DNA of 64,000 nucleotides, taken from positions 5,391 to 69,390 of the forward strand of contig JAKITE010000002.1 in assembly GCA_021648225.1 (NCBI GenBank), read 5' to 3'. The DNA comes from Paracoccaceae bacterium. Lineage in GTDB: Bacteria > Pseudomonadota > Alphaproteobacteria > Rhodobacterales > Rhodobacteraceae. Below the pieces are notes generated by a model, which saw only the letters and a program-made list of their open reading frames with translations, did no database searches and was not told the origin of the DNA. Below, piece by piece: positions 2,695-41,269 of this stretch. The number at the start of each line of letters is the position of its first letter. Position 1 is the stretch's first letter. The position numbers and the translations under genes were made by a program.

Positions 2695-4650
2695 ATGACA
2701 AAATTTAGTGATCTGGACCTCGACCCGAAGGTTCTAAAAGCAATAGCCGATACCGGCTATGAAACGCCGACCCCCATTCAGGCTCAGGCAATCCCCCATG
2801 CCCTGCAAGGCAGAGACGTGTTGGGCATCGCCCAGACCGGCACCGGTAAAACCGCGTCTTTCACCCTGCCCCTGATTACCATTCTGGCCAAGGGCCGTGC
2901 CCGCGCACGCATGCCGCGCAGCCTGATTCTGTGCCCCACCCGCGAACTCGCGGCGCAAGTGGCCGAGAATTTCGACAATTATTCCAAATATCACCGACTT
3001 TCCAAAGCCCTGCTGATCGGCGGCGTCAGCTTTAAGGATCAGGACCGCCTGATCGATCGCGGCGTTGATGTGCTAATCGCCACGCCGGGCCGCTTGCTCG
3101 ATCATTTTGAGCGCGGCAAATTGATGCTGACCAATGTGCAAATCATGGTAGTAGACGAGGCCGACCGCATGCTGGATATGGGATTCATTCCCGATATCGA
3201 ACGCATCTTCAAGCTGACACCATTCACGCGCCAAACCCTGTTTTTTTCGGCCACGATGGCGCCGGAAATCACCCGCATTACCGAAGAATTCCTGCACAAC
3301 CCTGTGCGGGTCGAGGTCGCGCGTCAAGCCACCACCTCGGAGACAATTACGCAGGCGGTTTGTGAATTCACACCATCACGCAAAGACCGCACCGCCAAGG
3401 AAAAACGCGAGGTTATGCGCGCGATTATGAAGGCCGAGGGCGACGCGCTGACCAACGCGATTATTTTTTGTAATCGCAAAGTAGACGTTGATATTGTTGC
3501 CAAATCCATGAAAAAGCACGGGCTTGATGCCAATCCTATCCACGGCGATCTTGACCAGAACACGCGGATGAAAATCCTCAATTCGTTCCGTGACGGAGAA
3601 TTAAAATTTTTAGTGGCCTCGGATGTGGCGGCGCGCGGGCTTGATATCCCGAATGTTAGCCATATTTTCAATTTTGACGTGCCGATTCACGCCGAAGATT
3701 ACGTGCATCGCATTGGCCGCACCGGCCGCGCGGGGCGCAAAGGCAAAGCCATTACCATTGCCGTGCCGTTTAACAAAAAACATCTGGATGCGATCGAAGC
3801 ATTGGTAAAACAGGAAATCCCGCGCATGGAAAACCCGCTGGCCACGGCTCCGGCTGAAAAACCGGAACAAAAACCCACACCAAAACCTGCGCCACAAGCA
3901 GCCAAGGTTGAAAAACCCGAAGCGCCAAAAGCCGACGCAGCAAAGCCAGAGCAATCTAAACAACGCAGCCCGCGCCAACCGCGCCAGGATAACCGGCGCA
4001 ACAATCGCGGCCCGATGGGTATGGGCGACCATATGCCGGCCTTTATGACAAGGCCGATAAAATTATCAGCAGATCGCGACGGTGCAACGGCTGTTGAAGA
4101 AGTTGTTGAAACAGCCGAGGTTGTTGAAACACCGGCAGTTCAGGAAAAGCCGAAACCAAAGCGCAGATCACGCGCCAAGGCCAAAGCACCTGTTGAAGAG
4201 GCCGTTGTTGAAGCTGTTGAAGAAATGGCCGTTGAAACGGTTACAGAAACAGCCGAACCCGCAGCAGAAAAGCCCAAGCGCAAGCCGCGCACCCGCGCCA
4301 AAGCGCCGGCAGCGGTTGAAGAGGCTAGTGAAACAACGGAAGCCGCGCCGGAAAAGCCCAAGCGCAAATCCCGGGCCAAAGCAAAACCACCGGTTGACGA
4401 AACGGTTGAGGCACCAGCCAAGCCAAAGCGCAAATCACGGGCCAAAACCAAGGCACCAGCCGCTGATGATGCTGCGGCCACCGATGTTGATGCACCGGCG
4501 GAAAAGCCCAAGCGCAAGCCGCGCACCAAAGCAAAGGCAGCGGTTGCTAAACCCCCCGCGCCAGAAGCCCCTGCTCCGGTAGCAAAACCCAAACGCAAGG
4601 CGCGCATTACTCAAAAAGCACCGGTAGCGGCGGCAACTGACGAAGAATAA
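2695..4650 (+). CDS. DEAD-box ATP-dependent RNA helicase with a long Lys/Ala/Pro/Glu-rich C-terminal tail
   Basis: Helicase motifs AQTGTGKT, PTRELA, VVDEADRM, FSATM and HRIGRTGRAG are present. I prefer the internal ATG at 2695 (MTKFSDLDL...) over the ORF-track start at 2620. The tail is about 250 aa and low in complexity. Confidence 0.9.
   Translation: MTKFSDLDLDPKVLKAIADTGYETPTPIQAQAIPHALQGRDVLGIAQTGTGKTASFTLPLITILAKGRARARMPRSLILCPTRELAAQVAENFDNYSKYHRLSKALLIGGVSFKDQDRLIDRGVDVLIATPGRLLDHFERGKLMLTNVQIMVVDEADRMLDMGFIPDIERIFKLTPFTRQTLFFSATMAPEITRITEEFLHNPVRVEVARQATTSETITQAVCEFTPSRKDRTAKEKREVMRAIMKAEGDALTNAIIFCNRKVDVDIVAKSMKKHGLDANPIHGDLDQNTRMKILNSFRDGELKFLVASDVAARGLDIPNVSHIFNFDVPIHAEDYVHRIGRTGRAGRKGKAITIAVPFNKKHLDAIEALVKQEIPRMENPLATAPAEKPEQKPTPKPAPQAAKVEKPEAPKADAAKPEQSKQRSPRQPRQDNRRNNRGPMGMGDHMPAFMTRPIKLSADRDGATAVEEVVETAEVVETPAVQEKPKPKRRSRAKAKAPVEEAVVEAVEEMAVETVTETAEPAAEKPKRKPRTRAKAPAAVEEASETTEAAPEKPKRKSRAKAKPPVDETVEAPAKPKRKSRAKTKAPAADDAAATDVDAPAEKPKRKPRTKAKAAVAKPPAPEAPAPVAKPKRKARITQKAPVAAATDEE
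4140..4620 (+). repeat. Six in-frame degenerate tandem repeats encoding (E/A)KPKRKxRxKAK blocks within the helicase tail
   Basis: GAAAAGCCCAAGCGCAA-type units recur at about 4143, 4267, 4351, 4420, 4501 and 4581. At protein level they read EKPKPKRRSRAKAKA, EKPKRKPRTRAKA, EKPKRKSRAKAKP, AKPKRKSRAKTKA, EKPKRKPRTKAKA and AKPKRKARITQKA. Confidence 0.75.
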
Positions 4651-4721
4651 ATTCGACGTATCGTTGAAAATGGAGTAGGTTCTGCGTTACACCGCAACCT
4701 CTCCATTGGAAACGAACAAGA

Positions 4722-5543
4722 ATGTCGAACAAGAAAGTAACCGCCAAAACCCCTGACCGCAAAATTGCCAACTCGACCTATGAGGCAGAGCTGGAACGCC
4801 TTCAGGTTGAACTTGTCAAAATGCAGGAATGGATAAAAACCCAAGGATTAAAGGTTGTGGTGATCTTTGAAGGGCGCGATGCGGCGGGCAAAGGCGGCAC
4901 CATCAAACGCATTACCGAGCCGCTAAACCCGCGCATTTGCCGCGTGGTTGCCCTGCCCGCCCCGACGGAGCGCGAGACAACCCAATGGTATTTTCAGCGT
5001 TACGTTGCGCACCTGCCATCTGCCGGTGAAATGGTGATTTTGGACCGGTCATGGTATAATCGCGGCGGTGTTGAACGGGTGATGGGGTTCTGCACAGATG
5101 AGGAACATCAGGATTTTCTACGTTCTTGCCCCGAATTTGAACGCATGTTGGTGCGTTCCGGTATCAAAGTCATTAAATACTGGTTTTCTGTCAGCGACGA
5201 GGAACAGGAGCGCCGGTTCCAGAAACGTCTGAAAACTCCGACAAAACGCTGGAAATTGTCACCCATGGACCTTGAATCGCGCAAACGCAGTGTCGATTAT
5301 TCCAAAGCCAAGGACATCATGTTTGCGCATACGGATATCAAACAATCACCGTGGTTTGTGGTGCGTTCCGACGTGAAAAAACACGCGCGCATTAACTGTA
5401 TCACCCACCTGCTTGGCCAAATCCCGTATGAGGACATCACCCCCGAGGAAATTGTGCTAGAGGAACGGCCGCCCCAACAAGGCTATGTTCGCCCGCCGAT
5501 GGACGACCAAACCTTTGTTGAGGAAACCCACCTAACGCTTTAA
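4722..5543 (+). CDS. ppk2: Polyphosphate kinase 2 (single-domain)
   Basis: 273 aa with the Walker A-like motif FEGRDAAGKGGTIKR and the PPK2-typical WYFQRY and DRSWYNR motifs. Confidence 0.85.
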   Translation: MSNKKVTAKTPDRKIANSTYEAELERLQVELVKMQEWIKTQGLKVVVIFEGRDAAGKGGTIKRITEPLNPRICRVVALPAPTERETTQWYFQRYVAHLPSAGEMVILDRSWYNRGGVERVMGFCTDEEHQDFLRSCPEFERMLVRSGIKVIKYWFSVSDEEQERRFQKRLKTPTKRWKLSPMDLESRKRSVDYSKAKDIMFAHTDIKQSPWFVVRSDVKKHARINCITHLLGQIPYEDITPEEIVLEERPPQQGYVRPPMDDQTFVEETHLTL

Positions 5544-7207
5544 TCAATCATTCGATTAATCAACACCGTGCAAACCGGCTTTTTACCAATCGCGGTTTTA
5601 CAAACGCGATTGGTGGCCCGAGCCACAATCATTTCGACCGCCTCGTCGTCATTCAACGCTCCGCGTTTGGCTTTGCGAAGGTCATTCTCAATGGCTTCTT
5701 CCAGCAATCCATCCAGACCGTTGGCTGCATTTTTCACATCGGGCAGCCCATGGCCCTCGGCCCAGACCCCGTCAATAAGGCCCTGATCATCGTCAATCAT
5801 CAGGCTAACCACCACATGGCCGCGCATGGCGAATTGCAAGCGTTGGCGCACTATGCCATCCAGCGCGCCGATCAAAACCGTGCCATCCAGATACAACCGG
5901 CCGGTGTCGATATTTCCAACTGTTTTGGCGTTATTTGTAATATCAACCATCACCCCGTTAGGCGCGATCACGGCTTTGCGGCCATTGCCCTCGGACAGGA
6001 TCACATGTTCGCGCAGATGCCGGTATTCGCCATGCATCGGAATTACCAGATCAGGGTTTAACAGGCGTTGCAGTTCCAGCAAATCAGGCCGGTTGGCGTG
6101 GCCTGATACATGGTAACGGTCATCGCCCGAAACCACGTTGACGCCTTTTTGGGCAAACAGGTTATGAATACGGCCAACGCCGATTTCATTGCCCGGAATG
6201 GTTTTTGAGGAAAACAGAAACGTATCGCCGTCTTTCATTTCCAAGCCACGGTATTTGCCCTGCGCCAGTTGCGCGCTGGCGGCGCGGCGTTCGCCTTGTG
6301 ACCCTGTTGCCAGCACCATCAATTGATTGCGCGGAATGTCTTTGGAATCTTCCAGATCCACAATCGGCGGGAAATCTGTCAGCACACCGGTGCTTTGACC
6401 GGTATTGATCATGGTGCTCATGGCGCGGCCCACAACCACAACCGAGCGCCCCGCATCGACAGCCGCCTGTGCCAGCGTTTTCAGCCGCGCAACATTGCTG
6501 CCAAATGTGGTGGCAACCACCATGCCGGTGGCCTCGCGCATCATTTCGGTGATGGCTGGCGGCAGGCTGGATTCAGACCGGCCCGGTTCGGGCGAAAACA
6601 CATTGGTGCTATCACATACAAATGCCGTGATGCCGTTTTTGGCGATATCCTGCATCAATTTTGCATCAAATGCTTCGCCGACCACGGGGTTGGTATCAAT
6701 TTTGAAATCACCGGAATGGAATATGCGACCTGCCGGTGTGTCGATCACCAGCGCCGATGCCTCGGGGATCGAATGGGATATTGGCACAAAGCCGACCTTA
6801 AACGGGCCGACCTCAACCGTTTCGGGCCACATGGGCGTTTCACGCACCATTTCAGGGTCTTGTCCGGCGCGTTCCATTTTGTTGCGCGCAATCGCGGCGG
6901 TAAACGCGCGACAATAGATGGGAGCCTGCAAACGCGGGAACAAATGCCCCAAAGCGCCGATATGGTCTTCGTGGGCGTGGGTGATGAAAATCCCCTCCAG
7001 CCGGTCTGCGCGATCGGTAATATAGGCGGGGTCTGCCATAATCAGGTCAACGCCGGGGCTGCTTTCCATATCGGGAAAGGCCACGCCTACGTCTACCAGT
7101 ATAAATTTTTCGTTGTTTTTAGGGCCATAGCCATAAAGATACATGTTCATGCCAATCTCGCCTGCGCCACCAAGGGGCAGGTAAATCAACCGGTTATTCT
7201 TAGTCAT
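5540..7207 (-). CDS. rnj: Ribonuclease J (metallo-beta-lactamase / beta-CASP)
   Basis: 555 aa with the HAHEDHIGAL (HxHxDH) motif and a GGAGEIGMN N-terminus. It lies at the end of the conserved nuoN-birA-coaX-rnj arrangement. Confidence 0.85.
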   Translation of the reverse strand: MTKNNRLIYLPLGGAGEIGMNMYLYGYGPKNNEKFILVDVGVAFPDMESSPGVDLIMADPAYITDRADRLEGIFITHAHEDHIGALGHLFPRLQAPIYCRAFTAAIARNKMERAGQDPEMVRETPMWPETVEVGPFKVGFVPISHSIPEASALVIDTPAGRIFHSGDFKIDTNPVVGEAFDAKLMQDIAKNGITAFVCDSTNVFSPEPGRSESSLPPAITEMMREATGMVVATTFGSNVARLKTLAQAAVDAGRSVVVVGRAMSTMINTGQSTGVLTDFPPIVDLEDSKDIPRNQLMVLATGSQGERRAASAQLAQGKYRGLEMKDGDTFLFSSKTIPGNEIGVGRIHNLFAQKGVNVVSGDDRYHVSGHANRPDLLELQRLLNPDLVIPMHGEYRHLREHVILSEGNGRKAVIAPNGVMVDITNNAKTVGNIDTGRLYLDGTVLIGALDGIVRQRLQFAMRGHVVVSLMIDDDQGLIDGVWAEGHGLPDVKNAANGLDGLLEEAIENDLRKAKRGALNDDEAVEMIVARATNRVCKTAIGKKPVCTVLINRMID

Positions 7208-7979
7208 TCATTTTCTTTCTGTTCAGTGCCGCAATCAACACCAGACCATGCACGGTCAAATCCGTGTCCAGATGGTCAAATATATCGGTGCCTTGCGCAA
7301 ATAAGGGTGAGAGGCCGCCAGTGCCGATGATTTTCATCGCTTGCCCGCGTTCCTCTGCGATACGTTTACATATGCCTTCAATGAGGCCAATGTAACCCCA
7401 ATAGATGCCTGATTGCATACAAGCATAGGTATTTGTGCCAACCACGCTATCGGGCTGGGTCACATCGATATGGGGCAATGCGGCAGCGGCGTGATGGAAC
7501 GCCTCAAGGCTGATATTAACCCCGGGGCTGATCACACCACCCACATAGGCACCATCATGATCCGCCACATCAAAGGTCGTGGCGGTGCCAAAATCAACAA
7601 TAATCAGGTTGCCGCCATAACGATCAAACCCTGCCACACAATTAACCAGCCGGTCAGGGCCAACCCCTGCATGCGGGTCCACGCGCGGGGCTGGGCCGAT
7701 GTCAATTTCCGGTTTGCCAACCACCATCGGGCGGCAGCCAAAATAACGGTCACACAGCACCCGCAGGTTATAAACCACACGCGGCACGGTCGATGAGATG
7801 ATAACCCGATTGATTTTTCCGGTAATGCCCGCATGGTTCATCAGGTGTTTCAGCCAGACAAAATATTCATCCGCCGTGCGCGCATGGTCTGTGCTGCAAC
7901 GGAAATCTCCGACAAAGTTATCGCCATCATGCACTGCAAAAACCGCGTTGGTATTGCCCACATCAATTGCCAGTAACAT
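7200..7979 (-). CDS. coaX: Type III pantothenate kinase
   Basis: 259 aa starting MLLAIDVGNTN (ASKHA phosphate-1 motif). It overlaps the rnj start by 8 nt. Confidence 0.85.
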   Translation of the reverse strand: MLLAIDVGNTNAVFAVHDGDNFVGDFRCSTDHARTADEYFVWLKHLMNHAGITGKINRVIISSTVPRVVYNLRVLCDRYFGCRPMVVGKPEIDIGPAPRVDPHAGVGPDRLVNCVAGFDRYGGNLIIVDFGTATTFDVADHDGAYVGGVISPGVNISLEAFHHAAAALPHIDVTQPDSVVGTNTYACMQSGIYWGYIGLIEGICKRIAEERGQAMKIIGTGGLSPLFAQGTDIFDHLDTDLTVHGLVLIAALNRKKMND

Positions 7980-7990
7980 TTTGCTTCCTT

Positions 7991-8713
7991 TCAGAAAAAC
8001 ACATCGGCTGCGGGCAGCACCAGCCGCCCTTTGGCTGTCATAAGCACAAGCGCGCCGGTTTCGTCAATGGTTTCGAATGTGCCGGTCTCGACACGGTTTG
8101 GTAGGCGGGCATAGATAACCTCTCCCAATTTTGCAGCATTGTCCAGCCAGGCGCGGCGGATCGGATCAAAGCCAAAATCGCGCATTTGCTGCTCAAAGCG
8201 CTCAAAACCGGTTGCCAGAGCTGCCAAAAAATCCAACGCGCTGACATGACTGCCAATCACGTTGCTTAGCGCAATTGGCGGCAGCGCATTTGGTTCCAGC
8301 TTTTTAATATCCGGTGCTTTGGCAAGATTAACCCCAATGCCGATAATGATTGCGCCCGACGCGCTGGCCAGCAAAATTCCGGCGATTTTCTGCCCCTTGA
8401 CCAGCACATCATTGGGCCATTTCAGGGTAATATCCGTGGCGCCAAAGCTTTCCAGTGTATCTTGCAAAGCCAGTGCCGCCACAAAAGACCGCTGCGCCAG
8501 TGCTTGCATATCATCCGATGAGTGCATCAACAGGCTGGCGGCAAAATTGCCTTTGGGCATTTCCCAAACCTTGCCGCGCCGTCCGGTTCCGGCGGTTTGT
8601 TTATGGGTTAATATCCACTGATCACCGGTATTTATACGCCGTGCGGCTTCCAGATTGGTGCTGTCAACAGTTTCCAGAATGACCCGCCCCAGATGTGCGG
8701 GCCAATCGGGCAT
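7991..8713 (-). CDS. birA: Biotin-[acetyl-CoA-carboxylase] ligase, no N-terminal HTH
   Basis: 240 aa with the QTAGTGRRGKVW biotin-ligase signature. Its start overlaps the nuoN stop (TAATG). Confidence 0.8.
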   Translation of the reverse strand: MPDWPAHLGRVILETVDSTNLEAARRINTGDQWILTHKQTAGTGRRGKVWEMPKGNFAASLLMHSSDDMQALAQRSFVAALALQDTLESFGATDITLKWPNDVLVKGQKIAGILLASASGAIIIGIGVNLAKAPDIKKLEPNALPPIALSNVIGSHVSALDFLAALATGFERFEQQMRDFGFDPIRRAWLDNAAKLGEVIYARLPNRVETGTFETIDETGALVLMTAKGRLVLPAADVFF

Positions 8714-10155
8714 TAGTTTAACAGGCTGGTTGCGGCTGCCAGTGCCATGCCCTCAACCCCGAACATATTGACGATGCCAAACACCATTGCGCCCGCAGAT
8801 GCGGCCAGAAATACCATGTGCAGCAGTGGCATTTTGCCATCCAGCACTTCGGTTTCCTCCCCAAAATACATGATGTAAATGATACGCAGATAATAAAACG
8901 CCGCAATCACCGAGGCCATCACGCCGGCAATCGCCAGCCATGCCAGATCGGCCTGAATGGCCGCATTCAGCACATAGAATTTACCAAAAAAGCCAACCAG
9001 CGGCGGCAGGCCCATCAGGCTGAACATCAACAGTGTAAGCGCCAATGCCTGCCCCGGTGCGCGTTTTGAAAACATGCCAAGCGCGTTGATGTCGGTTACA
9101 GGCCGACCGTCGCGCTCCATATTCAAAATGAATGCGAACACACCAATATTGGTGACAACATAGATCACCATATAGATCAGCATATTGGTCACGCCCAGTT
9201 GCGTGCCCGCTGCCAGCCCCATCAGCGCAAAGCCCATATGGCCAATGGAAGAATAAGCCATCAGACGTTTGATATTGCGCTGGCCAATCGCGGCGATTGA
9301 GCCGACAAACATCGACAATAGTGCAATAAAGGCAATGATCTGCTGCCAATCGGCAACCGCATAGCCAAAAGCATCAAACAACACCCGCGCAAACATCGCC
9401 ATGGCGGCAACCTTTGGCGCAGTGGCAAAAAACAGGGTAACCGGCGTTGGCGAGCCTTCATAAACATCAGGTGTCCACATATGAAACGGCGCGGCGGATA
9501 CCTTGAATGCCAGCCCTGTTGACATAAACACAAGGCCAAACAACACACCCAGCGACATGCCCTCAGCCGAAATTACCGCTGTGATGGATGTAAATTCAGT
9601 AGCACCGGTATAGCCGTAAACCAGCGACATACCATATAGCAACATACCCGAGGAAAGCGCGCCCAGCACAAAATATTTCAGCCCGGCCTCGGATGATTTC
9701 AGCGAGTCGCGGTTGAAAGATGCAATCACATAAAGCGCCAGCGATTGTAATTCCAACCCCATATAAAGCGACATCAGGTTGCCAGCCGATACCATCATCA
9801 TCATGCCAACCATGGCCAGGGAGATCAGCACCGGAAATTCGAATTTCATCAGGTTTTTGGCAACCAGAAAATTACGTGCCAAAATCAGCATTGCCGCGCC
9901 GGACCACAGCATCAAAACCTTGGCAAACCGCGCAAACGGGTCATCGACAAACATACCGTGAAATGCGGTGTTTGTATCGGCACCGGCAAAGCCGATCCAG
10001 AAACCAAGGCCGACAAAAACCAGCGCGGTTGCCCATAAGACACCTTCGCCCTTTTCGGTTTTGTTAAAGACGCCAAACATCAGCGCCGCCATGGCAAAAC
10101 CAACCAGAATTAGTTCTGGCAGGATAACATTTATGTCGTTGCTTAACATGTTCAT
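8713..10155 (-). CDS. nuoN: NADH-quinone oxidoreductase subunit N
   Basis: 480-aa polytopic antiporter-like protein in the last position of the nuo operon. Confidence 0.9.
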   Translation of the reverse strand: MNMLSNDINVILPELILVGFAMAALMFGVFNKTEKGEGVLWATALVFVGLGFWIGFAGADTNTAFHGMFVDDPFARFAKVLMLWSGAAMLILARNFLVAKNLMKFEFPVLISLAMVGMMMMVSAGNLMSLYMGLELQSLALYVIASFNRDSLKSSEAGLKYFVLGALSSGMLLYGMSLVYGYTGATEFTSITAVISAEGMSLGVLFGLVFMSTGLAFKVSAAPFHMWTPDVYEGSPTPVTLFFATAPKVAAMAMFARVLFDAFGYAVADWQQIIAFIALLSMFVGSIAAIGQRNIKRLMAYSSIGHMGFALMGLAAGTQLGVTNMLIYMVIYVVTNIGVFAFILNMERDGRPVTDINALGMFSKRAPGQALALTLLMFSLMGLPPLVGFFGKFYVLNAAIQADLAWLAIAGVMASVIAAFYYLRIIYIMYFGEETEVLDGKMPLLHMVFLAASAGAMVFGIVNMFGVEGMALAAATSLLN

Positions 10156-34076: not shown

Positions 34077-34871
34077 ATGATTGATCTATTAACCTTTGGC
34101 AACCTTGCCAATCTGGTCATTTTATTATTTCTTCAGGCCGTGCTTGGCTTTGACAATCTTTTATATATCTCGATTGAATCGCGCCGCGCACCGGCTGAAC
34201 ATCAGGCAAAGGTTCGCAAATGGGGCATCATCATTGCGGTAGCGCTGCGGGTTGTGCTGCTGTTTGTGATGATCCAGCTGATTGAAACCCTGAAAGCGCC
34301 GTTCTTTTCGCTAAATATCTCCGGCATTGTCGAGGGCAATTTCAATTTTGCCACGCTGGTATTTTTGTTTGGCGGGGTGTTTATTATGTATACCGCCGTT
34401 AAGGAAATCAGCCATATGCTGGCGATTGAACATCTGGAAGAAGGTGTCGCAAAACGCAAACATAAATCGGCATTTCAGGTTATCATGATGATTGTATTCA
34501 TGAATTTAATCTTCAGCTTTGATTCCGTGCTGTCAGCACTGGCCATTACCGATGTGTTTCCGGTGCTGGCCACAGCCATTTTACTGTCGGGGCTGGCAAT
34601 GGTTTTGCTGGCCGACGGTGTTGCCGAATTTATCAAGAAAAACCGTATGTATGAGGTGCTGGGCCTGTTTATCCTGCTGATCGTTGGCATTGTATTGCTG
34701 GGCGAGGCTGGCCATGAGGGGCAGATCAAACTGTTTGGTTTCGCGGTAGAACCGATTAGCAAAACCACCTTCTATTTCTCGATCGCGGTGTTGGTCGTGG
34801 TGGAAATCATCCAGTCAAAATACAAGAAAAAGCTGGCCTATGAACGGGCACGCCAACAAGCAAAACAATAA
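34077..34871 (+). CDS. TerC family integral membrane protein
   Basis: 264 aa, polytopic, with an N-terminal LQAVLGFDNLLYISIE motif typical of TerC/Alx/YkoY-type proteins. Confidence 0.75.
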   Translation: MIDLLTFGNLANLVILLFLQAVLGFDNLLYISIESRRAPAEHQAKVRKWGIIIAVALRVVLLFVMIQLIETLKAPFFSLNISGIVEGNFNFATLVFLFGGVFIMYTAVKEISHMLAIEHLEEGVAKRKHKSAFQVIMMIVFMNLIFSFDSVLSALAITDVFPVLATAILLSGLAMVLLADGVAEFIKKNRMYEVLGLFILLIVGIVLLGEAGHEGQIKLFGFAVEPISKTTFYFSIAVLVVVEIIQSKYKKKLAYERARQQAKQ

Positions 34872-34945: not shown

Positions 34946-35038
34946 ATGTCGGGTAAAACCCTGCAATTGATTGCATATCTTGTGCTGGTCAGCCTTATCT
35001 GGGTGGTTGCCGCCGGTTCTTACGGGTGGATTTCCTGA
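34946..35038 (+). CDS. 30-codon hydrophobic micro-ORF translationally coupled to the XpaC-like gene
   Basis: It encodes MSGKTLQLIAYLVLVSLIWVVAAGSYGWIS. An AAGGA RBS lies about 7 nt upstream of the ATG, and the TGA stop shares its A with the next ATG (TGATG). It is too short to appear in the ORF track. Confidence 0.45.
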   Translation: MSGKTLQLIAYLVLVSLIWVVAAGSYGWIS

Positions 35039-35958
35039 TGGCAGTCAAACGTTTCAGGGGGGCCAACAGCCCCGATGCAAAACCGGATGAAGCGGTTATA
35101 ATGGCGGATGCGCCGGTTAATCCATTGGCCGGCAAATCCATCAAGGTCAGCAATTTTCGCGCAAATCTGTTGTTTTTTGTGCCCCTGCCCTTGCTGTTGA
35201 ACGGGTTTTCCAAAATGGCGGATGCCGCGCCGCTTTCGATGCTGGCATCTTTTGGCGCCTTTGCCTTGCTTGTTCTTTCCGCATGGCTACTGCGCGAAGG
35301 GTTAAAGGCCGAAGCCGCCTATAATGCCCGCAAGGTTGCGCGCCCGCCGATGCCACGAAAAATCATCGCCGCCGATCTTTCCGGTATCGGGGTTGGCATG
35401 GCCGCGTGGCTTAGCTGGGGCCAGCCGCTCTGGAGCGCGGTGGTGTTTGGCGTGGTTACGGTTGTGGCTTTTCTGGCGGCTTTCGGGCTGGACCCGTTAC
35501 GCAAAAAAGGCATGGAAGGCTTTAACGAATTTGAAGCCAACCGCGTTGCCAAGGCGGTTGGCAAAGCCGAAAAACTGCTGGCCCAAATCAGCGACGCCGC
35601 GGCGCGTATTGGTGACCGGCGCATCGAATCCAAGGTGAATGATCTGACCGCTGCGGCGGCTGAAATGCTGCGGGTTGTTGAAGACGACCCACGGGATTTG
35701 ACATCGGCACGTAAATTCATGACGGTATATTTAATGGGTGCGCGCGATGCGACGGTAAAATTTGCCGATGTTTATTCGCGATCCCAAAATCAGGAAGCAC
35801 GATCGGAATACGAGACTTTATTAAAAGACCTGCAAACAAGTTTTGAAGGTAAAAAACAAGCATTATTGCAAGATGACCACACCGATCTGGATGTGGAGAT
35901 CGAAGTCTTGCGCGAAAGATTACAACGCGAAGGGCATTTGCCCAAAGAGGGAGAATAA
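35038..35958 (+). CDS. XpaC-like (5-bromo-4-chloroindolyl phosphate hydrolysis family) membrane protein
   Basis: About 306 aa: four TM helices followed by a helical C-terminal domain with the DPRDLTSARKFMTVYL motif. It lies immediately upstream of telA, as in the Bacillus xpaC-yaaN pair. Confidence 0.65.
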   Translation: MAVKRFRGANSPDAKPDEAVIMADAPVNPLAGKSIKVSNFRANLLFFVPLPLLLNGFSKMADAAPLSMLASFGAFALLVLSAWLLREGLKAEAAYNARKVARPPMPRKIIAADLSGIGVGMAAWLSWGQPLWSAVVFGVVTVVAFLAAFGLDPLRKKGMEGFNEFEANRVAKAVGKAEKLLAQISDAAARIGDRRIESKVNDLTAAAAEMLRVVEDDPRDLTSARKFMTVYLMGARDATVKFADVYSRSQNQEARSEYETLLKDLQTSFEGKKQALLQDDHTDLDVEIEVLRERLQREGHLPKEGE

Positions 35959-35959
35959 C

Positions 35960-37147
35960 ATGACCGAGGATATCAGAGCCAAAGCAGAAAGCACCTTGAA
36001 AGAGGTTGAAAAAGTCACCTCGGTGCTGCTGCCGGAACCAAAAGGCGAATTGATCGTGATTGATCAGGCCAGCGCTGCCGAAAAAGCACAAATCGACACT
36101 GCCATTGGCGAGCTGGATATGGGAGACACCCAGTCGATCATCCGGTTCGGGTCATCCGCACAGGCCGAATTGCAGGTAATTTCGCAAGAAATGCTGGCCG
36201 GTGTGCGCAATCAGGATGCTGGCCCTGCGGGCGATGCGCTGCGCGAAATGGTGACCTCCATTCGTGGTTTCTCGGTTGATGAACTGAACCCGAACCGCAC
36301 CCAAAGCTGGTGGGATAAATTGCTGGGCCGCGCCAAACCGATTGCCATGTTCATGGCCAAATACGAAACCGTGCAAGGCCAGATTGATAAAATTACCGAA
36401 GAATTATTGCAGCACGAACATATCTTGCTTAAAGACATCAAATCGCTTGATAAGCTGTATGAAAAAACCCTTGAATTTTACGACCAACTGGCGATTTATA
36501 TCGCGGCTGGCGAAGAAAAAATCAAAAGCCTTGATGATGTGGATATTCCGGCAAAACAAAAAGCCGTGGATGACGCGCCTGAGGATGACAAGGTTATTAT
36601 CGCACAGGAACTGCGTGATCTGCGCGCCGCACGCGATGATCTGGAACGCCGGGTGCATGATTTGAAACTGACCCGTCAGGTCACCATGCAAAGCCTGCCC
36701 AGCATTCGTCTGGTGCAGGAAAACGATAAATCTCTGGTTACCAAGATCAATTCCACCATGGTCAACACTGTGCCGCTTTGGGAAACCCAACTGGCGCAGG
36801 CTGTCACCATCCATCGTTCCCGCGAGGCTGCAAAAGTAGTGCGCGAGGCCAATGATCTGACCAATGAATTGCTGACTGCCAATGCGGAAAACCTGAAAAT
36901 CGCCAATAAGGAAATCCGCACCGAAATGGAACGCGGCGTGTTTGACATCGAGGCTATCAAAAAGGCCAATGCGGCCCTGATTGAAACCATCGAGGACAGC
37001 CTGCGCATCGCTGACGAGGGCAAAGCCAAACGTCTTGAGGCCGAAAAAGAGCTGGACATTATGGAGCGCGAGCTGACCAACACGCTGGCAGCGGCCAAAG
37101 CCAAAGATACGGCCTCTAGCCATAATATCGGCAGCAGCGTCGAATAG
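35960..37147 (+). CDS. telA: TelA / toxic-anion-resistance family protein
   Basis: 395 aa from the ATG at 35960 after a GAGGGAGA RBS (the ORF track starts at 35843). It is helical and coiled-coil rich, with an IIRFGSSAQAELQVISQEML N-terminal region. Confidence 0.8.
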   Translation: MTEDIRAKAESTLKEVEKVTSVLLPEPKGELIVIDQASAAEKAQIDTAIGELDMGDTQSIIRFGSSAQAELQVISQEMLAGVRNQDAGPAGDALREMVTSIRGFSVDELNPNRTQSWWDKLLGRAKPIAMFMAKYETVQGQIDKITEELLQHEHILLKDIKSLDKLYEKTLEFYDQLAIYIAAGEEKIKSLDDVDIPAKQKAVDDAPEDDKVIIAQELRDLRAARDDLERRVHDLKLTRQVTMQSLPSIRLVQENDKSLVTKINSTMVNTVPLWETQLAQAVTIHRSREAAKVVREANDLTNELLTANAENLKIANKEIRTEMERGVFDIEAIKKANAALIETIEDSLRIADEGKAKRLEAEKELDIMERELTNTLAAAKAKDTASSHNIGSSVE

Positions 37148-37169
37148 GAGACAAACATGGGTATTTTCG
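37143..37169 (+). repeat. Direct repeat copy 1 (telA stop + RBS + first 13 nt of the SPFH-type coding sequence)
   Basis: AATAGGAGACAAACATGGGTATTTTCG matches 26 of 27 positions at 38027-38053. Confidence 0.9.
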
Positions 37170-37189
37170 GGCTTAGGAGACGTAATTGA
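37157..37189 (+). other. 10-codon stub (MGIFGLRRRN*) duplicating the first four codons of the SPFH gene
   Basis: The start codon and codons 1-4 (MGIF) equal those of the gene at 38041. The reading frame then diverges and stops 1 nt before the GTG of the next ORF. Confidence 0.6.
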
Positions 37190-37190
37190 A

Positions 37191-37847
37191 GTGTTTATAG
37201 ATTTGTTGAAACCTGAAACCTTTGATTTCGTCGCTAAGTTTTTTCTGGCCGGATACATAGTCATTGTCATACGATCCCGATTTGTAGTCGGAGAGCGACC
37301 TAAGGCAGCCCATGTAGTCGCTGAAGCCGTAATTCTTAGCCTAATTAACCAATTAATATTTCAAACCATAAGTCAGATTTTCATATGGATCGTCCCTACT
37401 GAATACAGCCAGTGGGTTTGGATGCGCTTCCCATTTTATATTGAAGTTGTATTTCTCCCATTATTGTGGGGTTTACTGATTGGAGCAAACTTATCCAAAG
37501 GCTGGAAACATGCGGTTTTCCGGCGGCTCTCGATGCCTATCGTTAGCCCAATTCAAAGAGCTCACGATTTTGCTTTTGGTTTTAACAGAGAGCCCTGCCT
37601 TGTAATAGTTACATATGAAGATGAAACGATAGTGAGGGGCCATTTTGGCACCGAATCCTTAGCCGCCAGTGATCCCGAACGTAGCGATTTGTACTTGGAA
37701 CGCCTATATACTGTAGATAACACTGACCAATGGATAGAAACAATGCCGGGCAGGTCGGCTTTGTTAAGTTTGAATAATGTGCGTTCGATCGAATTTTTAG
37801 ATCAGATCACAAATGATACTAATTCAGAAGGAAAAGGAAATGCCTAA
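37191..37847 (+). CDS. Hypothetical membrane protein (cargo of the AT-rich insertion)
   Basis: 218 aa with a GTG start 10 nt after an AGGAGA. There are about 4 N-terminal TM helices and a soluble C-terminal domain of about 100 aa. Nucleotide composition is clearly AT-richer than the flanks by eye. The architecture reminds me of DUF6338-type proteins, but this is unverified. Confidence 0.55.
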   Translation: MFIDLLKPETFDFVAKFFLAGYIVIVIRSRFVVGERPKAAHVVAEAVILSLINQLIFQTISQIFIWIVPTEYSQWVWMRFPFYIEVVFLPLLWGLLIGANLSKGWKHAVFRRLSMPIVSPIQRAHDFAFGFNREPCLVIVTYEDETIVRGHFGTESLAASDPERSDLYLERLYTVDNTDQWIETMPGRSALLSLNNVRSIEFLDQITNDTNSEGKGNA

Positions 37848-38031
37848 ATCAGGACGAACGCTGTTAGTTGACGGCTATCAGGCCAAACCTAAGCTCAGGG
37901 CAATTACTAAAATCGGAGCTAATAGTCGCGGTTATCAAGGGTTAAAAAAACCTAGTTCTCTATCAAGTGCCGGTAACACAGCAAAATTACCAAAAACGAC
38001 ATCCGCAGTTCAAAAGCCTGCCAAAAAATAG
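37840..38031 (+). CDS. Hypothetical small basic protein (second cargo ORF)
   Basis: 63 aa from the ATG at 37840 (MPKSGRTLL...KPAKK). It overlaps the upstream stop by 8 nt, and its own stop is the TAG inside direct repeat copy 2. It is Lys-rich and likely disordered. Confidence 0.35.
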   Translation: MPKSGRTLLVDGYQAKPKLRAITKIGANSRGYQGLKKPSSLSSAGNTAKLPKTTSAVQKPAKK

Positions 38032-38053
38032 GAGACAAACATGGGAATTTTCG
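38027..38053 (+). repeat. Direct repeat copy 2
   Basis: AATAGGAGACAAACATGGGAATTTTCG. It contains the functional RBS and start of the SPFH gene. Confidence 0.9.
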
Positions 38054-39141
38054 ATTTTTTAACCGGCCAGTTTATAGATGTCATCCACCATACGGATGAC
38101 ACGCAAGATACGCTGGTCTGGCGGTTTGAACGTCAGGGCCATGAAATTAAATATGGCGCGAAATTAACGGTTCGCGAAGGCCAAGCGGCGGTTTTCATCC
38201 ATGAGGGCCAGATGGCGGATGTATTTTCGCCCGGGCTTTATATGTTGGAAACCAACAATATGCCGATCATGACCAGCCTGCAACACTGGGATCACGGTTT
38301 TCAAAGCCCGTTCAAGTCGGAAATATATTATGTCAACACCACCCGTTTTCAAGACCTGAAATGGGGCACCAAAAATCCGATCATGTGCCGCGACCCGGAA
38401 TTTGGCGTGGTGCGTATTCGCGCTTTTGGCACCTATACCATTCGGGTTTCTGACCCTGCGGTGTTTATGCGTGAAATTGTTGGCACCGATGGTGAATTCA
38501 CCACCGATGAAATCTCCAGCCAGATCCGCAATATCATTGTGTCGCGTTTTACCAATGCGGTGGCAAAATCCGGCATTCCGGTGCTGGATATGGCCGCAAA
38601 TATGGACGAGCTGAGCAATATTATTGCTGATCTTGTCTCGCCACAACTGGCGGAATACGGCCTTGAAATGCCGATGCTGATGATCGAAAACATCTCGCTG
38701 CCCGCAGCGGTAGAAGAGGCCATGGACAAACGCACCTCGATGGGTGTGGTGGGCGATTTGAACAAATATACTCAATTCTCCGCAGCCGAAGCCATGACCG
38801 CAGCCGCCTCCAACCCCGGTGGTTCGGGCATGGGTGACGGGCTTGGCATGGGTATGGGCATGGCGATGGCGCAAAACATGGCTGGTATGGGCGCTGCTGC
38901 ACCCGCCGCTGCCGCGCCGCCGCCTCCGCCGGCTGAAAAGGTCTGGCATCTTGCTGAAAACGGCAAAACCACCGGTCCGTTTTCAAAAGCCGCCCTTGGC
39001 CGCATGGCCAGCGATGGCAGCCTGAAACGCGGTTCAACCGTTTGGACTGCGGGTCAGGATGGCTGGATAGCAGCGGGTGATATTGATGAATTGGCACAGC
39101 TGTTTACGGTTATGCCGCCGCCTCCACCACCAGCTGGCTAG
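38041..39141 (+). CDS. SPFH/band-7-like protein (YdjI / 'virion core protein' type) with Gly/Met/Ala/Pro low-complexity linker and C-terminal GYF_2-like domain
   Basis: 366 aa with an MGIFDFLTGQFIDVI N-terminus and the WRFERQG...LTVREGQAAVF motif. The linker reads GGSGMGDGLGMGMGMAMAQNMAGMGAAAPAAAAPPPPP. The C-terminal part reads WHLAENGKTTGPFS...VWTAGQDGW. Confidence 0.65.
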   Translation: MGIFDFLTGQFIDVIHHTDDTQDTLVWRFERQGHEIKYGAKLTVREGQAAVFIHEGQMADVFSPGLYMLETNNMPIMTSLQHWDHGFQSPFKSEIYYVNTTRFQDLKWGTKNPIMCRDPEFGVVRIRAFGTYTIRVSDPAVFMREIVGTDGEFTTDEISSQIRNIIVSRFTNAVAKSGIPVLDMAANMDELSNIIADLVSPQLAEYGLEMPMLMIENISLPAAVEEAMDKRTSMGVVGDLNKYTQFSAAEAMTAAASNPGGSGMGDGLGMGMGMAMAQNMAGMGAAAPAAAAPPPPPAEKVWHLAENGKTTGPFSKAALGRMASDGSLKRGSTVWTAGQDGWIAAGDIDELAQLFTVMPPPPPPAG

Positions 39142-39147
39142 GCTTGT

Positions 39148-40248
39148 ATGGTTGAAACACCCTCTGAAGAAGAACACCGCTTTCCCTGTGGGGATTGCGG
39201 CTCTGACATGCGTTTTGACGCAGCTAAATCTTTGTTGGTATGCGATTTTTGTGGCAATACCGAACCCGTTGCAGCGCGCGAAAGCGCCAATTGGCAAATC
39301 ACCGAGCAGGATTTCAACAAAGCCCTGCGCGATGAATTGCCCGAATCGGAAATGGAAACCACACGGGTTGCCAAATGCGAAAATTGCGGCGCTCAGGTAG
39401 ATTTTGCCAAGGATAGCCATGCCACCGAATGCCCGTTTTGCGCCAGCCCGATCGTGCTGGATACCGGCACCAACAAACATATCAAACCCAAGGGTGTTTT
39501 GCCTTTTTCTGTGGCTGAAAAAGCCGCGCGCGGGGCCATGACCGACTGGTTGGGCAAATTGTGGTTTGCCCCTAATAACCTGAAAGAATACGCCCGAAAA
39601 GACCGCAAAATGCAGGGGGTCTATGTGCCCTACTGGACCTATGACAGCCAATCGGAATCCGATTATCGCGGCCAGCGCGGTGATGCCTATTATGTGACAC
39701 GAACCGTGGTGGTAAACGGCAAAACCGAAACAAGACGCGAACGCAAAATCCGCTGGCGGCCGGCAGCGGGCCATATCTCAAAGTTTTTTGACGATATTCT
39801 GATTCTGGCCTCAAAAAGCCTGCCGAAAAAATACACCGACCGGCTGGCGCCTTGGGATCTGTCGGAACTGGAGGCCTATAGCCCCGATTATCTGGCAGGC
39901 TTTAACGCCGAGGCCTATTCGGTGCAGCTGGCCGACGGGTTTATCGAGGCCAAAATCCTGATGGAGCGTGAAATACGCCAGCTGGTGCGCCACGATATTG
40001 GCGGTGATGAACAACGCATTTCACGGCTTGATACCCGGCTAAGCGACATCACCTATAAGCACGTGCTGCTGCCGGTCTGGCTGGCGGCCTATAAATATAA
40101 CGGTAAAACCTTTCGCTTTGTGGTCAATGGCCGCACCGGCAAGGTGCAAGGCGAACGCCCTTGGTCCAAAATCAAAATCGCGCTGGCGGTTGTGGCTGGC
40201 CTGATTGTTGCTGGTGCAGCGGTTTATTTTATTCAGGCCAATCAATAA
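39148..40248 (+). CDS. Double zinc-ribbon protein with C-terminal TM anchor (YdjG-like)
   Basis: 366 aa with two CxxC-x15-16-CxxC ribbons (CGDCGSDMRFDAAKSLLVCDFCG and CENCGAQVDFAKDSHATECPFCAS) and a C-terminal helix (IALAVVAGLIVAGAAVYFI). Confidence 0.6.
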   Translation: MVETPSEEEHRFPCGDCGSDMRFDAAKSLLVCDFCGNTEPVAARESANWQITEQDFNKALRDELPESEMETTRVAKCENCGAQVDFAKDSHATECPFCASPIVLDTGTNKHIKPKGVLPFSVAEKAARGAMTDWLGKLWFAPNNLKEYARKDRKMQGVYVPYWTYDSQSESDYRGQRGDAYYVTRTVVVNGKTETRRERKIRWRPAAGHISKFFDDILILASKSLPKKYTDRLAPWDLSELEAYSPDYLAGFNAEAYSVQLADGFIEAKILMEREIRQLVRHDIGGDEQRISRLDTRLSDITYKHVLLPVWLAAYKYNGKTFRFVVNGRTGKVQGERPWSKIKIALAVVAGLIVAGAAVYFIQANQ

Positions 40249-40254
40249 GGCATA

Positions 40255-40291
40255 AAAAACCGCCTAAGCTAACATGCTTCGGCGGTTTTTT
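40255..40291 (+). terminator. Rho-independent terminator of the envelope-stress operon
   Basis: AAAAACCGCCtAAGC-taacat-GCTTcGGCGGTTTTTT lies 7 nt after the stop. Confidence 0.85.
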
Positions 40292-40596
40292 AATTTGTCA
40301 ATCAACTATGAATAAGTACGCACAAGGCGAAATAATTACACGGCGGCACTCGATACGTTTGCCTTGTGCGTATCTACGTTATGCCAGATGATTTGGTTTG
40401 AAATGTGGCGAAAATTGACATTTACCGCCAAAAACACCTGCACCTTACGTAAGGTAACGTTGATTTTTGGCCATTTTTTGCCACTCGGACCAAAAACAAC
40501 TGTAGCTTACGCAGCCTGATTCCTGCGTTTTCAAATCAAAGTTGGTTTGTTTTGTCAAAACTCGGGATGATTCTTTTGGCCTCTGAATCAACAATA

Positions 40597-40615
40597 AATG
40601 CCGACATCCGGCATT
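40597..40615 (-). terminator. Candidate terminator hairpin for the 141-aa ORF
   Basis: On the minus strand it reads AATGCCG-gatgt-CGGCATT followed by TATTGTTGATT. It lies about 100 nt after the stop at 40713. Confidence 0.4.
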
Positions 40616-40712
40616 GGCTGGTTTGGCAAATCATCGCGCAAAAATCAACTGGACAGGTTTTTGCCCTTTCCTGCCTGAGGAAAATCTGACAATTCCAAAA
40701 ATATTGCCAAGC

Positions 40713-41138
40713 CTATCGGTTAAACAGCCCTTTTATATCATTCAGCAGATAAGGGCTGGGTTCGCGGGCTGCAACATCCGGCGTGATAATTTCTTCATAT
40801 GCTTCCTGATCGCGGTCGCCATACCAGTTCAGGTTGGGGTGGCGTTCTGCATCCCGGTCAAACAGGATAAAACTGCAATCAAGTTTTAATGCCAAACCAT
40901 AACAATCAATAATATCCGAAGGGTATGGCTTGCCCGATATGCTGCGTTCGGCGGCGTCGCGCACATCGATAAACCAGCCATAGCTGCTGCCTTTTACGGC
41001 AAATGGCAGGCTGCACGGTTTTCCGATAAAGAAATTCACCGAATCCTCACCAAGCCGTTTTCGGGTATCTTCGGTTAAATGCCCTGTGGAAATATCCAGC
41101 ATATATCGAATAAAAAGCGACATCCGTTTACCATCCAA
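40713..41138 (-). CDS. Hypothetical cytoplasmic protein (orphan)
   Basis: 141 aa with no signal peptide or TM helix. It is a single gene between the convergent spacer and the ushA-like gene. The start is uncertain because three Met codons lie within the first 13 codons. Confidence 0.5.
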   Translation of the reverse strand: MDGKRMSLFIRYMLDISTGHLTEDTRKRLGEDSVNFFIGKPCSLPFAVKGSSYGWFIDVRDAAERSISGKPYPSDIIDCYGLALKLDCSFILFDRDAERHPNLNWYGDRDQEAYEEIITPDVAAREPSPYLLNDIKGLFNR

Positions 41139-41269
41139 TGATCCGTTGACTTAGGTTCAACATCCAAGGTTACGGTAAGCAAAGCGTTAATCGGGCAAGA
41201 TTGTTTGCTGTAAAATTTGCTAAAATTTATAGAAAACCCCGCCAGCGAACCGGCGGGGCAGATCAAAGA

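Follow-up and report, generated by a model that had tools for sequence, protein, structure and literature searches.

In class 1 integrons, the leader open reading frames (ORFs) ORF-11 and ORF-18 in attI1 have been shown experimentally to be coupled to the first cassette (PMC8876359). We found a comparable layout in a stretch of 64,000 nucleotides (nt) from a marine Paracoccaceae bacterium (Rhodobacteraceae; GenBank GCA_021648225.1, contig JAKITE010000002.1), hereafter called the window, whose locus is referred to as WIN. Here, a 0.86-kb segment directly upstream of a gene for an SPFH protein is flanked by direct repeats of 27 nt. This segment is a facultative two-gene cassette, always located directly 5' of SPFH, which carries a DUF6338 gene and a gene for a small protein. 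As in the integron system, a resident Shine-Dalgarno sequence (SD) and ATG open a short non-functional peptide (10-18 codons), the inserted cassette supplies the tail and the stop of this peptide, and the leader ends at or near the start of the cassette gene, an arrangement suited to reinitiation on a cassette without its own promoter. Unlike an integron cassette, the DUF6338 cassette has no IntI, attI, attC, or GTTRRRY core, and the resident initiation region is that of a real gene, SPFH. Because this region belongs to SPFH, the cassette must bring a replacement initiation region, and a direct repeat results.

Direct repeats around an insert are also known from Campbell-type integration, which duplicates the homology segment; phage 21 and e14 in icd, as well as islands in tRNA genes, carry a spare end of their target. 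In those elements as in the window, one repeat is host-derived and the other element-borne, the target is kept intact by the element-supplied part, and precise excision would restore a single copy. However, those elements bring an integrase gene, and the part of the target that they replace is usually its 3' end, whereas here the 5' end (SD and first codons) is replaced by a 0.86-kb segment that has no recombinase gene. Comparative genomics has further introduced the concept of flexible genomic islets, transfer hotspots without mobile-element genes that lie between core genes. The locus in the window shares with them a fixed slot, presence or absence of the insert, alternative contents, AT-rich cargo, and the lack of mobility genes, but its exchange boundaries lie in a duplicated gene start of 11-29 nt instead of long core-gene flanks, and the slot is inside an operon.

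In gene content, the locus resembles pspA-ydjGHI of Bacillus subtilis, in which the gene of a soluble SPFH protein stands beside those of the membrane proteins that recruit it. YdjI, the SPFH protein of that operon, presumably belongs to the Pfam family Band_7_1. In the window operon, too, a Band_7_1 protein is encoded alongside a zinc-ribbon protein with a hydrophobic tail at its C-terminus, with DUF6338 as an optional addition. The window operon differs in having no PspA. [quoted passage not shown]

The repeat is a 27-mer, AATAGGAGACAAACATGGG(T/A)ATTTTCG, present on the + strand at 37143-37169 (copy 1) and 38027-38053 (copy 2) with 26 of 27 positions identical. No third site was detected in the 64 kb on either strand when up to 3 mismatches were allowed, and none of 100 dinucleotide-preserving shuffles matched the 27-mer. 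The longest exact run common to both copies is 19 nt, which is shorter than the k-mers assumed for assemblers of the kind used for such genomes. An assembly artefact was ruled out on the basis of this short run and of the recurrence of the same architecture in independent assemblies.

The two copies contain nearly the same sequence in different settings. Copy 1 comprises the telA stop (TAG, 37145-37147), an SD (AGGAG, 37146-37150), an ATG (37157) that lies 6 nt downstream of AGGAG, and the first 13 coding nt. It represents the native SPFH translation-initiation region and is collinear with the single-copy telA-SPFH junction of L001, a related locus (handles of this form denote the related loci throughout). 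The ATG in copy 1 opens a mini-ORF, MGIFGLRRRN* (37157..37189, + strand; the stub), with orthologous stubs in six other lineages. Its stop (TGA, 37187-37189) is separated by 1 nt from the GTG start of DUF6338. Copy 2 holds a cassette-borne SD (AGGAG, 38030-38034), followed by the real start codon of SPFH (ATG, 38041), and it also provides the stop of the second cargo ORF (TAG, 38029-38031). The boundaries of the cassette are TTTTCG|GGCTTAGG on the left and GCCTGCCAAAA|AATAGGAG on the right. An initial annotation of this DNA had reported the near-identical pair of 27-mers, placed the real ribosome-binding site (RBS) and first codons of SPFH in copy 2, recognized a 10-codon stub opening in copy 1 after the telA stop, and noted that the repeat itself ends the second cargo ORF. 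All of these observations hold at the coordinates above.

The DNA between the copies (857 bp) has a GC content of 0.422, while windows of the same size across the 64 kb average 0.529 (standard deviation 0.029). The insert therefore lies at z = -3.7, and only 0.2% of the windows are as low, in agreement with the AT-richness that the initial annotation had judged by eye. The GC content at third codon positions (GC3) is 0.40 in DUF6338 and 0.31 in the small ORF versus 0.60 in telA and 0.58 in SPFH. Across hosts whose flanking genes have a GC3 of 0.58-0.73, that of DUF6338 stays at 0.35-0.40.

To place the insert in context, we compared it with 80 Rhodobacteraceae loci that have an SPFH orthologue. 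Exact-sequence look-ups of the DUF6338 and SPFH proteins of the window returned no match, so the comparison does not include strains of the same species. The closest relative found, L001 (93% amino acid identity in both TelA and SPFH), has an empty site: telA abuts SPFH, and a single copy of the 27-mer (...GGATAGGAGAAAACCATGGGTATTTTCGATTTT) contains the telA stop, the SD, and the SPFH ATG, with a 9-nt gap. This is the single-copy junction for which the initial annotation had proposed to search related genomes. Empty sites are also present in L003, L004, and others. Most other relatives carry a resident gene of approximately 320 amino acids (aa) between telA and SPFH, with a GC content like that of its flanks and identified as DUF2927 wherever it was typed. 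The slot directly 5' of SPFH is occupied elsewhere by a globin (L065), a lactate permease (L039), a GSCFA protein (L077), or ORFs with no assigned family (L069, L027, L008); these additional genes lie at approximately 4400-5990 of each locus, with SPFH beginning at 6001. Duplicated SPFH starts beside these other occupants, and in the 80 loci at large, gave matches at chance level alone.

Every homologue of the window DUF6338 that could be placed lies between TelA or DUF2927 and SPFH, and the cassette was found at no other position among the related loci fetched. The two ORFs had been described as unrelated to their neighbors. In all fetched related loci, however, this DUF6338 subfamily was seen solely at this operon position.

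Two forms of the cassette can be distinguished. In the stub-less form (L087, L088, L090, L091-L096, L102, L050), DUF6338 is 36-65% identical to that of the window and starts 0-5 nt after the DUF2927 stop. In the stub-bearing form (WIN, L084, L082/L083, L081, L097, L085/L086, L100/L101), DUF6338 is 63-88% identical to that of the window and is preceded by a short ORF. The stub-bearing module, found in six diverged lineages besides the window, has the order stub, DUF6338, small protein, and then SPFH. The stub spans 10-15 codons and begins with MGIF or MGIL, the first codons of SPFH, and its ATG lies 34-38 nt 5' of the DUF6338 start in 7/7 loci. Its stop is at -4 in WIN, L084, L085, and L100, forms an ATGA overlap in L082 and L097, and lies at +8, inside the gene, in L081. 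A stop that close occurred in 3.5-5% of shuffles at each of the four loci with a stop at -4. Since this geometry is constant across lineages, the stub is an inherited part of one cassette lineage and was not made afresh in the window. The stub-less form is plausibly the older one and a possible source of the stub-bearing form.

The two copies of the SPFH start are not equivalent. In WIN, the left copy and its upstream spacer are collinear with the empty site of L001. The left copies of L085 and L100 correspond to the DUF2927-spacer-SD-SPFH junctions seen in L003 and L004, that of L081 matches L074 and L052, and the stub SD of L082 (AAGAGGTAACCC) resembles the native SD of L012, ACGAGGTAACAC. 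The SD regions of the right copies, on the other hand, are alike across cassettes and unlike the native spacers of the hosts, most clearly in L082 and also in L085, L097, and L100; in L082, L085, L100, and L081, the right-copy SD is of the cassette type and not a copy of the host's. Thus, the native SPFH start of the host is found in the left copy, and the right copy has an SD that belongs to the cassette. Because of this non-equivalence, we conclude that the cassette lies among the first SPFH codons and supplies this gene with a substitute initiation region. In L082, whose cassette is adjacent to telA, the telA stop and the stub are additionally separated by a G+C-rich hairpin (GGCCCGCACCCGCGCGGGCC; 4906-4962), which the window and L084 lack.

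We then asked how closely each stub follows the SPFH start of its own genome. Of 75 loci compared, WIN itself has the SPFH start that matches the WIN stub best (26/27), with no tie. The copies of L082 agree at 27/27 coding nt (29/29 in all), including lineage-specific synonymous variants, and those of L097 and L081 agree at 20/20 and 18/19, respectively. The stubs of L084, L085, and L100 have drifted; that of L084 matches its own start at 13/27, and 40 other loci match it better. The stub is clearly most similar to its own SPFH start in WIN, L082, and L097. L081 ranks near the top for +1..+20 and +1..+27 and falls behind 15 loci for -14..+13, while the comparison fails for L084 and L085. With such a mixed outcome, concerted evolution of the copies is real but not universal. 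The stubs of L081 and L097 have a base at position 20 in common that is specific to the stub, yet position 19 co-varies in both copies, a pattern that looks like orthologous stubs that are occasionally homogenized. If WIN and L084 have diverged at about 20% of sites since their split, as we estimate, the probability of at most 1 difference in 27 nt is approximately 0.02, so a later homogenizing event in the window lineage is likely.

The age of the insertion was assessed from third-position identities between WIN and L084, which are 0.72 for DUF6338, 0.79 for the 3' part of telA, and 0.62 for the 5' part of SPFH. The cassette has diverged about as much as its flanks and must therefore predate the split of the two. 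The initial annotation had read the repeats as a target-site duplication or as a cassette inserted exactly at the junction. The second part of this reading stands, as the cassette lies exactly at the SPFH start and L001 provides the empty site. A fresh or recent target-site duplication is not borne out, given that the cassette is older than the WIN-L084 split, that the stub module is common to six other lineages, and that short-homology recombination suffices to explain the repeats. Nor do the data support the suggestion that the locus represents an undescribed class of element, since the repeat copies are non-equivalent and the distance from the stub ATG is constant at 34-38 nt.

Identity matrices of cargo and backbone are incongruent. 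By backbone, L081 belongs with L087 and L091 (TelA 78% identical to L087; SPFH 80-81% to both). By DUF6338, it belongs instead with WIN and L082 (78-80%), the identity to L087 and L091 being 58-60%. The opposite holds for L085, whose TelA and SPFH are 81-83% and whose DUF6338 is 66% identical to those of WIN. As DUF6338 normally evolves faster than its flanks (88% vs 95-96% between WIN and L084), this incongruence points to transfer of the cassette between backbones. A double crossover in long flanks would be expected to leave a stretch of donor DNA at the SPFH 5' end, and none was detected at 90-nt resolution: in the sliding-window comparison of WIN, L081, L082, and L085, this end is backbone-like from the first 90-nt window on, and the left flanks are likewise backbone-like. 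With no donor tract in either flank, the exchanged DNA appears to be bounded by the repeats. The slot thus displays the traits of a flexible islet, namely empty sites, alternative occupants, deviant composition, and incongruent identity matrices.

Taking these results together, the best explanation in our view, to which we give about an even chance, is that the segment is a cassette without a recombinase gene of its own, which is gained, lost, and exchanged by recombination at the duplicated SPFH start and whose native left copy has been reused as a leader ORF coupled to DUF6338. In the founding event, approximately 27 nt of SPFH were probably joined about 11 nt 5' of DUF6338 from a stub-less operon. 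Such a join would yield a unit flanked by direct repeats, a cassette variant that carries its own SD and the first SPFH codons at its 3' end. Upon entry, the native initiation region would be left behind as copy 1, the second region would restore SPFH as copy 2, and the two copies would be the joints of recombination. Irrespective of the upstream gene, the cassette would be gained through recombination within the SPFH start, which is short and highly conserved, either by Campbell-like integration of a looped-out circle or by an equivalent short-homology exchange after DNA uptake. Loss would result from precise recombination between the direct repeats, leaving a single copy as in L001, and recombination between the repeats may also homogenize them. 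The native left copy would then drive a leader of 10-15 codons whose stop abuts or overlaps the DUF6338 start. With this short ORF, its canonical SD and ATG, and its stop near or overlapping that start, DUF6338 would be translated through termination-reinitiation at the leader.

Several points weigh against this explanation. Homologies of 11-29 nt are near or below the usual minimum for efficient RecA recombination. A simple crossover does not predict near-identical copies (26/27 in WIN, 29/29 in L082, and 20/20 in L097, as against 13/27 in the orthologous L084), so that extra homogenization by gene conversion or re-integration is needed. WIN, L084, and L001 are about equidistant (85-91% nt identity) and form a mosaic trichotomy, in which WIN is closer to L084 in the 3' part of telA and to L001 in the 5' part of SPFH; gain and loss therefore cannot be polarized. 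Donor tracts shorter than approximately 45-90 nt would escape the sliding-window comparison. There are seven distinct stub-bearing loci in all, in four groups, and neither a circle nor an excision product nor polymorphism within a species could be seen.

We next weighed these data against other explanations. The arrangement might be an old resident one, in which a single ancient local duplication before DUF6338 was followed by vertical descent, repeat-mediated deletion in some lineages, such as L001, and occasional gene conversion that keeps the copies alike, with the phylogenetic incongruence reflecting uneven rates. The constant stub geometry of 34-38 nt at the seven loci fits this idea, as do the co-divergence of cassette and flanks between WIN and L084, the base at position 20 shared by L081 and L097 with its co-varying neighbor at position 19 (orthologous stubs plus gene conversion), and the L001 junction, which is the exact product of a deletion between the WIN repeats. 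Uneven rates, however, would have to account for a large incongruence in both directions (L081, flanks 68-75% and DUF6338 78%; L085, flanks 81-83% and DUF6338 66%) in a gene that normally evolves faster than its flanks (88% vs 95-96%). Moreover, a GC3 of about 0.40 amid flanks of 0.58-0.73 is hard to square with long vertical residence, and the backbone clade of L081 (L087 and L091) carries the stub-less type of cassette. We therefore regard long residence as rather unlikely.

A mobile element of an undescribed kind, with a recombinase or transposase encoded elsewhere that recognizes the SPFH start and duplicates its target over a long and variable length, would account for the exact, recurrent position in different backbones with native sequence kept on the left, for the near-identical copies in some genomes (WIN, L082, and L097), and for the absence of visible donor DNA in the flanks. 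We consider this improbable. Neither the cassette nor the genes beside it encode a recombinase, terminal inverted repeats are lacking, and the repeat has no dyad symmetry. Across lineages the stub keeps its length, but the homology extends to different points (+11 to +13 in L085, L100, and WIN; +19 to +20 in L081 and L097; +27 in L082); independent duplications of different lengths next to a fixed cassette end would give the opposite pattern. The right SD is of the cassette type in L082, L085, L100, and L081, the cassette was found at no other locus, and no relative turned up in phage or viral collections. Selection, instead of recombination, could also keep the copies alike if a trans-acting regulator, such as a small RNA (sRNA) or an RNA-binding protein, read the SPFH initiation region and DUF6338 had to respond to the same signal as SPFH. 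Some synonymous or silent variants common to the stub and the SPFH start within a lineage (GAC and ACT in L082, CTT in L081/L097, GGC in L085) are in line with such mimicry. Yet the stubs of L084, L085, and L100 do not track their own SPFH start (L084 at 13/27, with 40 loci better), no complementary sequence or known RNA family was found in the region, and no candidate regulator was identified, making regulatory mimicry very improbable.

Described classes of elements were also considered. For an insertion sequence (IS), transposon, or miniature inverted-repeat transposable element (MITE), Pfam and repeat searches revealed neither a transposase nor terminal inverted repeats, and the host duplicate is not of fixed length (27 nt here, +11 to +27 among lineages). 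An integron cassette was rejected because no attC was found and the boundaries have neither a GTTRRRY core nor a hairpin-forming repeat; no intI is present among the genes at 34.0-41.2 kb, the part of the window scanned for integrases. An integrative element with attL and attR would have direct repeats, as seen here, but no recombinase domain was found in the 0.86-kb insert or the adjacent genes.

The first cargo gene (37191..37847, + strand) starts with GTG and encodes a DUF6338 membrane protein of 218 aa that matches Pfam PF19865 over its full length (E = 1.8e-36; 126.1 bits vs a gathering cutoff of 26.5 bits; residues 7-204 on positions 4-201 of the 205-position profile). We found 148 DUF6338 homologues, and all those listed carry PF19865. 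An AlphaFold2 model with a predicted local distance difference test score (pLDDT) of 81.6 has three long N-terminal helices, presumed to be transmembrane, and a small C-terminal beta-barrel. The barrel (residues ~125-205) gave weak Sm/LSm/Hfq-like matches in Foldseek (best E = 7e-3), with TM-scores of 0.5-0.64 normalized to the target. The possibility that the DUF6338 N-terminus (GTG TTT ATA GAT) derives from SPFH codons 10-13, which would have implied a longer duplication or a fusion, was ruled out, as the stub-less proteins have homologous N-termini, e.g., MAQFLTPETFEF. A distant DUF6338 homologue (26% identity) was observed on a Mesorhizobium mediterraneum plasmid (NZ_CP088154.1; L099, 3352-4564), directly 3' of genes for a nucleotidyltransferase and a SLATT-domain protein, a context that resembles conflict or defense systems.

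The second cargo gene (37840..38031, + strand) encodes a small Lys/Pro-rich protein of 63 aa (MPKSGRTLLVDGYQAKP...KLPKTTSAVQKPAKK). Eleven loci retain it, with in-frame indels and a common motif, R-T-x-L-V-[ED]-G-Y-Q...G-Y-Q...K-L-P-K-T-x-S-A-V-Q-K-P, from which we conclude that it is a real gene. Its start is most likely ATG 37840, which overlaps the DUF6338 stop (ATGCCTAA) and corresponds to the starts of the orthologues; this replaces the start at 37813 given before. In Pfam searches, DUF6338 was the sole match in the first ORF, nothing matched the second, and no transposase or integrase domain was found in the cargo; no terminal inverted repeats join the ends of the insert. The absence of such features had already been noted in the initial annotation. 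Neither cargo protein matches the PADLOC defense models, and Rfam returned nothing relevant in the region at E <= 1. Scans for promoter-like sites gave 6 versus 9.8 expected, and those for terminator-like sites gave 18 versus 11.4 expected. Inside the cassette there is one weak promoter-like site (37582-37609) and one terminator-like site (37745-37759), neither of them convincing. As a viral reservoir of DUF6338, IMG/VR yielded nothing and INPHARED one weak partial match.

According to the Pfam matches, the genes around the insert are TerC (34077-34871), XpaC-like (35026-35958), TelA, DUF6338, SPFH, zinc-ribbon, and DUF5983, within the conserved Rhodobacteraceae operon TerC-XpaC-TelA-(DUF2927)-SPFH-Zn-ribbon. 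On the left flank, telA (35960..37147, + strand) encodes a protein of 395 aa (TelA, PF05816, E = 6.5e-105), which is 96% identical (partial) to the TelA of L084. The longest possible telA ORF, from TTG 35843, overlaps the last part of the XpaC-like gene. Homologues are instead consistent with a start at ATG 35960, which lies a single base past the XpaC-like stop and gives 395 aa. On the right flank, the target gene SPFH (38041..39141, + strand) encodes 366 aa with a Band_7_1 domain (PF13421, E = 1.5e-101) and a GYF_2 domain (PF14237, E = 1.2e-18). In L088 (Salinihabitans flavidus, FODS01000017.1; 4806-5690), SPFH was called as 193 aa and a DDE_Tnp_1 transposase lies on the opposite strand at the contig end; an IS probably disrupted this SPFH.

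The last gene of the operon (39148..40248, + strand) encodes a protein with Pfam zinc-ribbon matches and a hydrophobic C-terminal segment that is a putative membrane anchor. It lies 3' of SPFH in 78/80 related loci and is followed in the window by a hairpin and T-run at 40253-40292 (inverted repeat I3, 17 nt, 94% complementary). Just past this operon terminator is a second AT-rich stretch (40200-41140, GC 0.41-0.44), and a DUF5983 gene follows on the minus strand (40713-41138); a DUF5983 gene is likewise present after the operon of L085. The distance from SPFH to the zinc-ribbon gene ranges from approximately 10 nt to more than 2 kb among related loci (L006, L018, L026, L029, L037, L041, L043, L044, L050, L065, and others), with the zinc-ribbon gene starting at 7100-9300 in locus coordinates. 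This suggests a second variable slot in the operon, between SPFH and the zinc-ribbon gene.

This locus is distinctive in what has been duplicated, namely the translation-initiation region of the downstream gene. It combines elements that are known separately: a transfer hotspot without mobile-element genes, a Campbell-like duplication by short homology, and the coupling of a leader ORF. At the sequence level, it illustrates how a conserved operon can take up two accessory genes in its middle and stay intact: the newcomer brings a replacement RBS and first codons for the gene downstream, and the resident copy would become the newcomer's leader ORF. If exchange does occur at a duplicated gene start of 11-29 nt, then very short conserved coding sequences may serve as portable recombination sites for flexible genes, which would matter in a clade known for gene transfer agents. 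We further considered, as a distinctly unlikely case, that the DUF6338 cassette is a self-contained mobile cassette without a recombinase gene, with the conserved translation-initiation region of a host gene as its attachment site. If true, the spare region would open any Rhodobacteraceae SPFH operon to it, whatever the upstream gene; the target gene would be kept working, the native initiation region taken over, and excision would be precise. Gene transfer agents might transport such a cassette from cell to cell. This would amount to a new way of gene movement within operons. Alternatively, gene starts might be the target of a trans-acting recombinase of an undescribed kind.

The findings also link the uncharacterized DUF6338 family and a new partner of approximately 60 aa to SPFH/TelA membrane-stress operons. 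With the precedent of PspA-YdjGHI in B. subtilis, it is tempting to speculate that DUF6338 and the small protein act as accessory membrane partners of the soluble SPFH scaffold. The operon link between DUF6338 and SPFH suggests such a membrane-partner role for this scaffold in a form that is testable.

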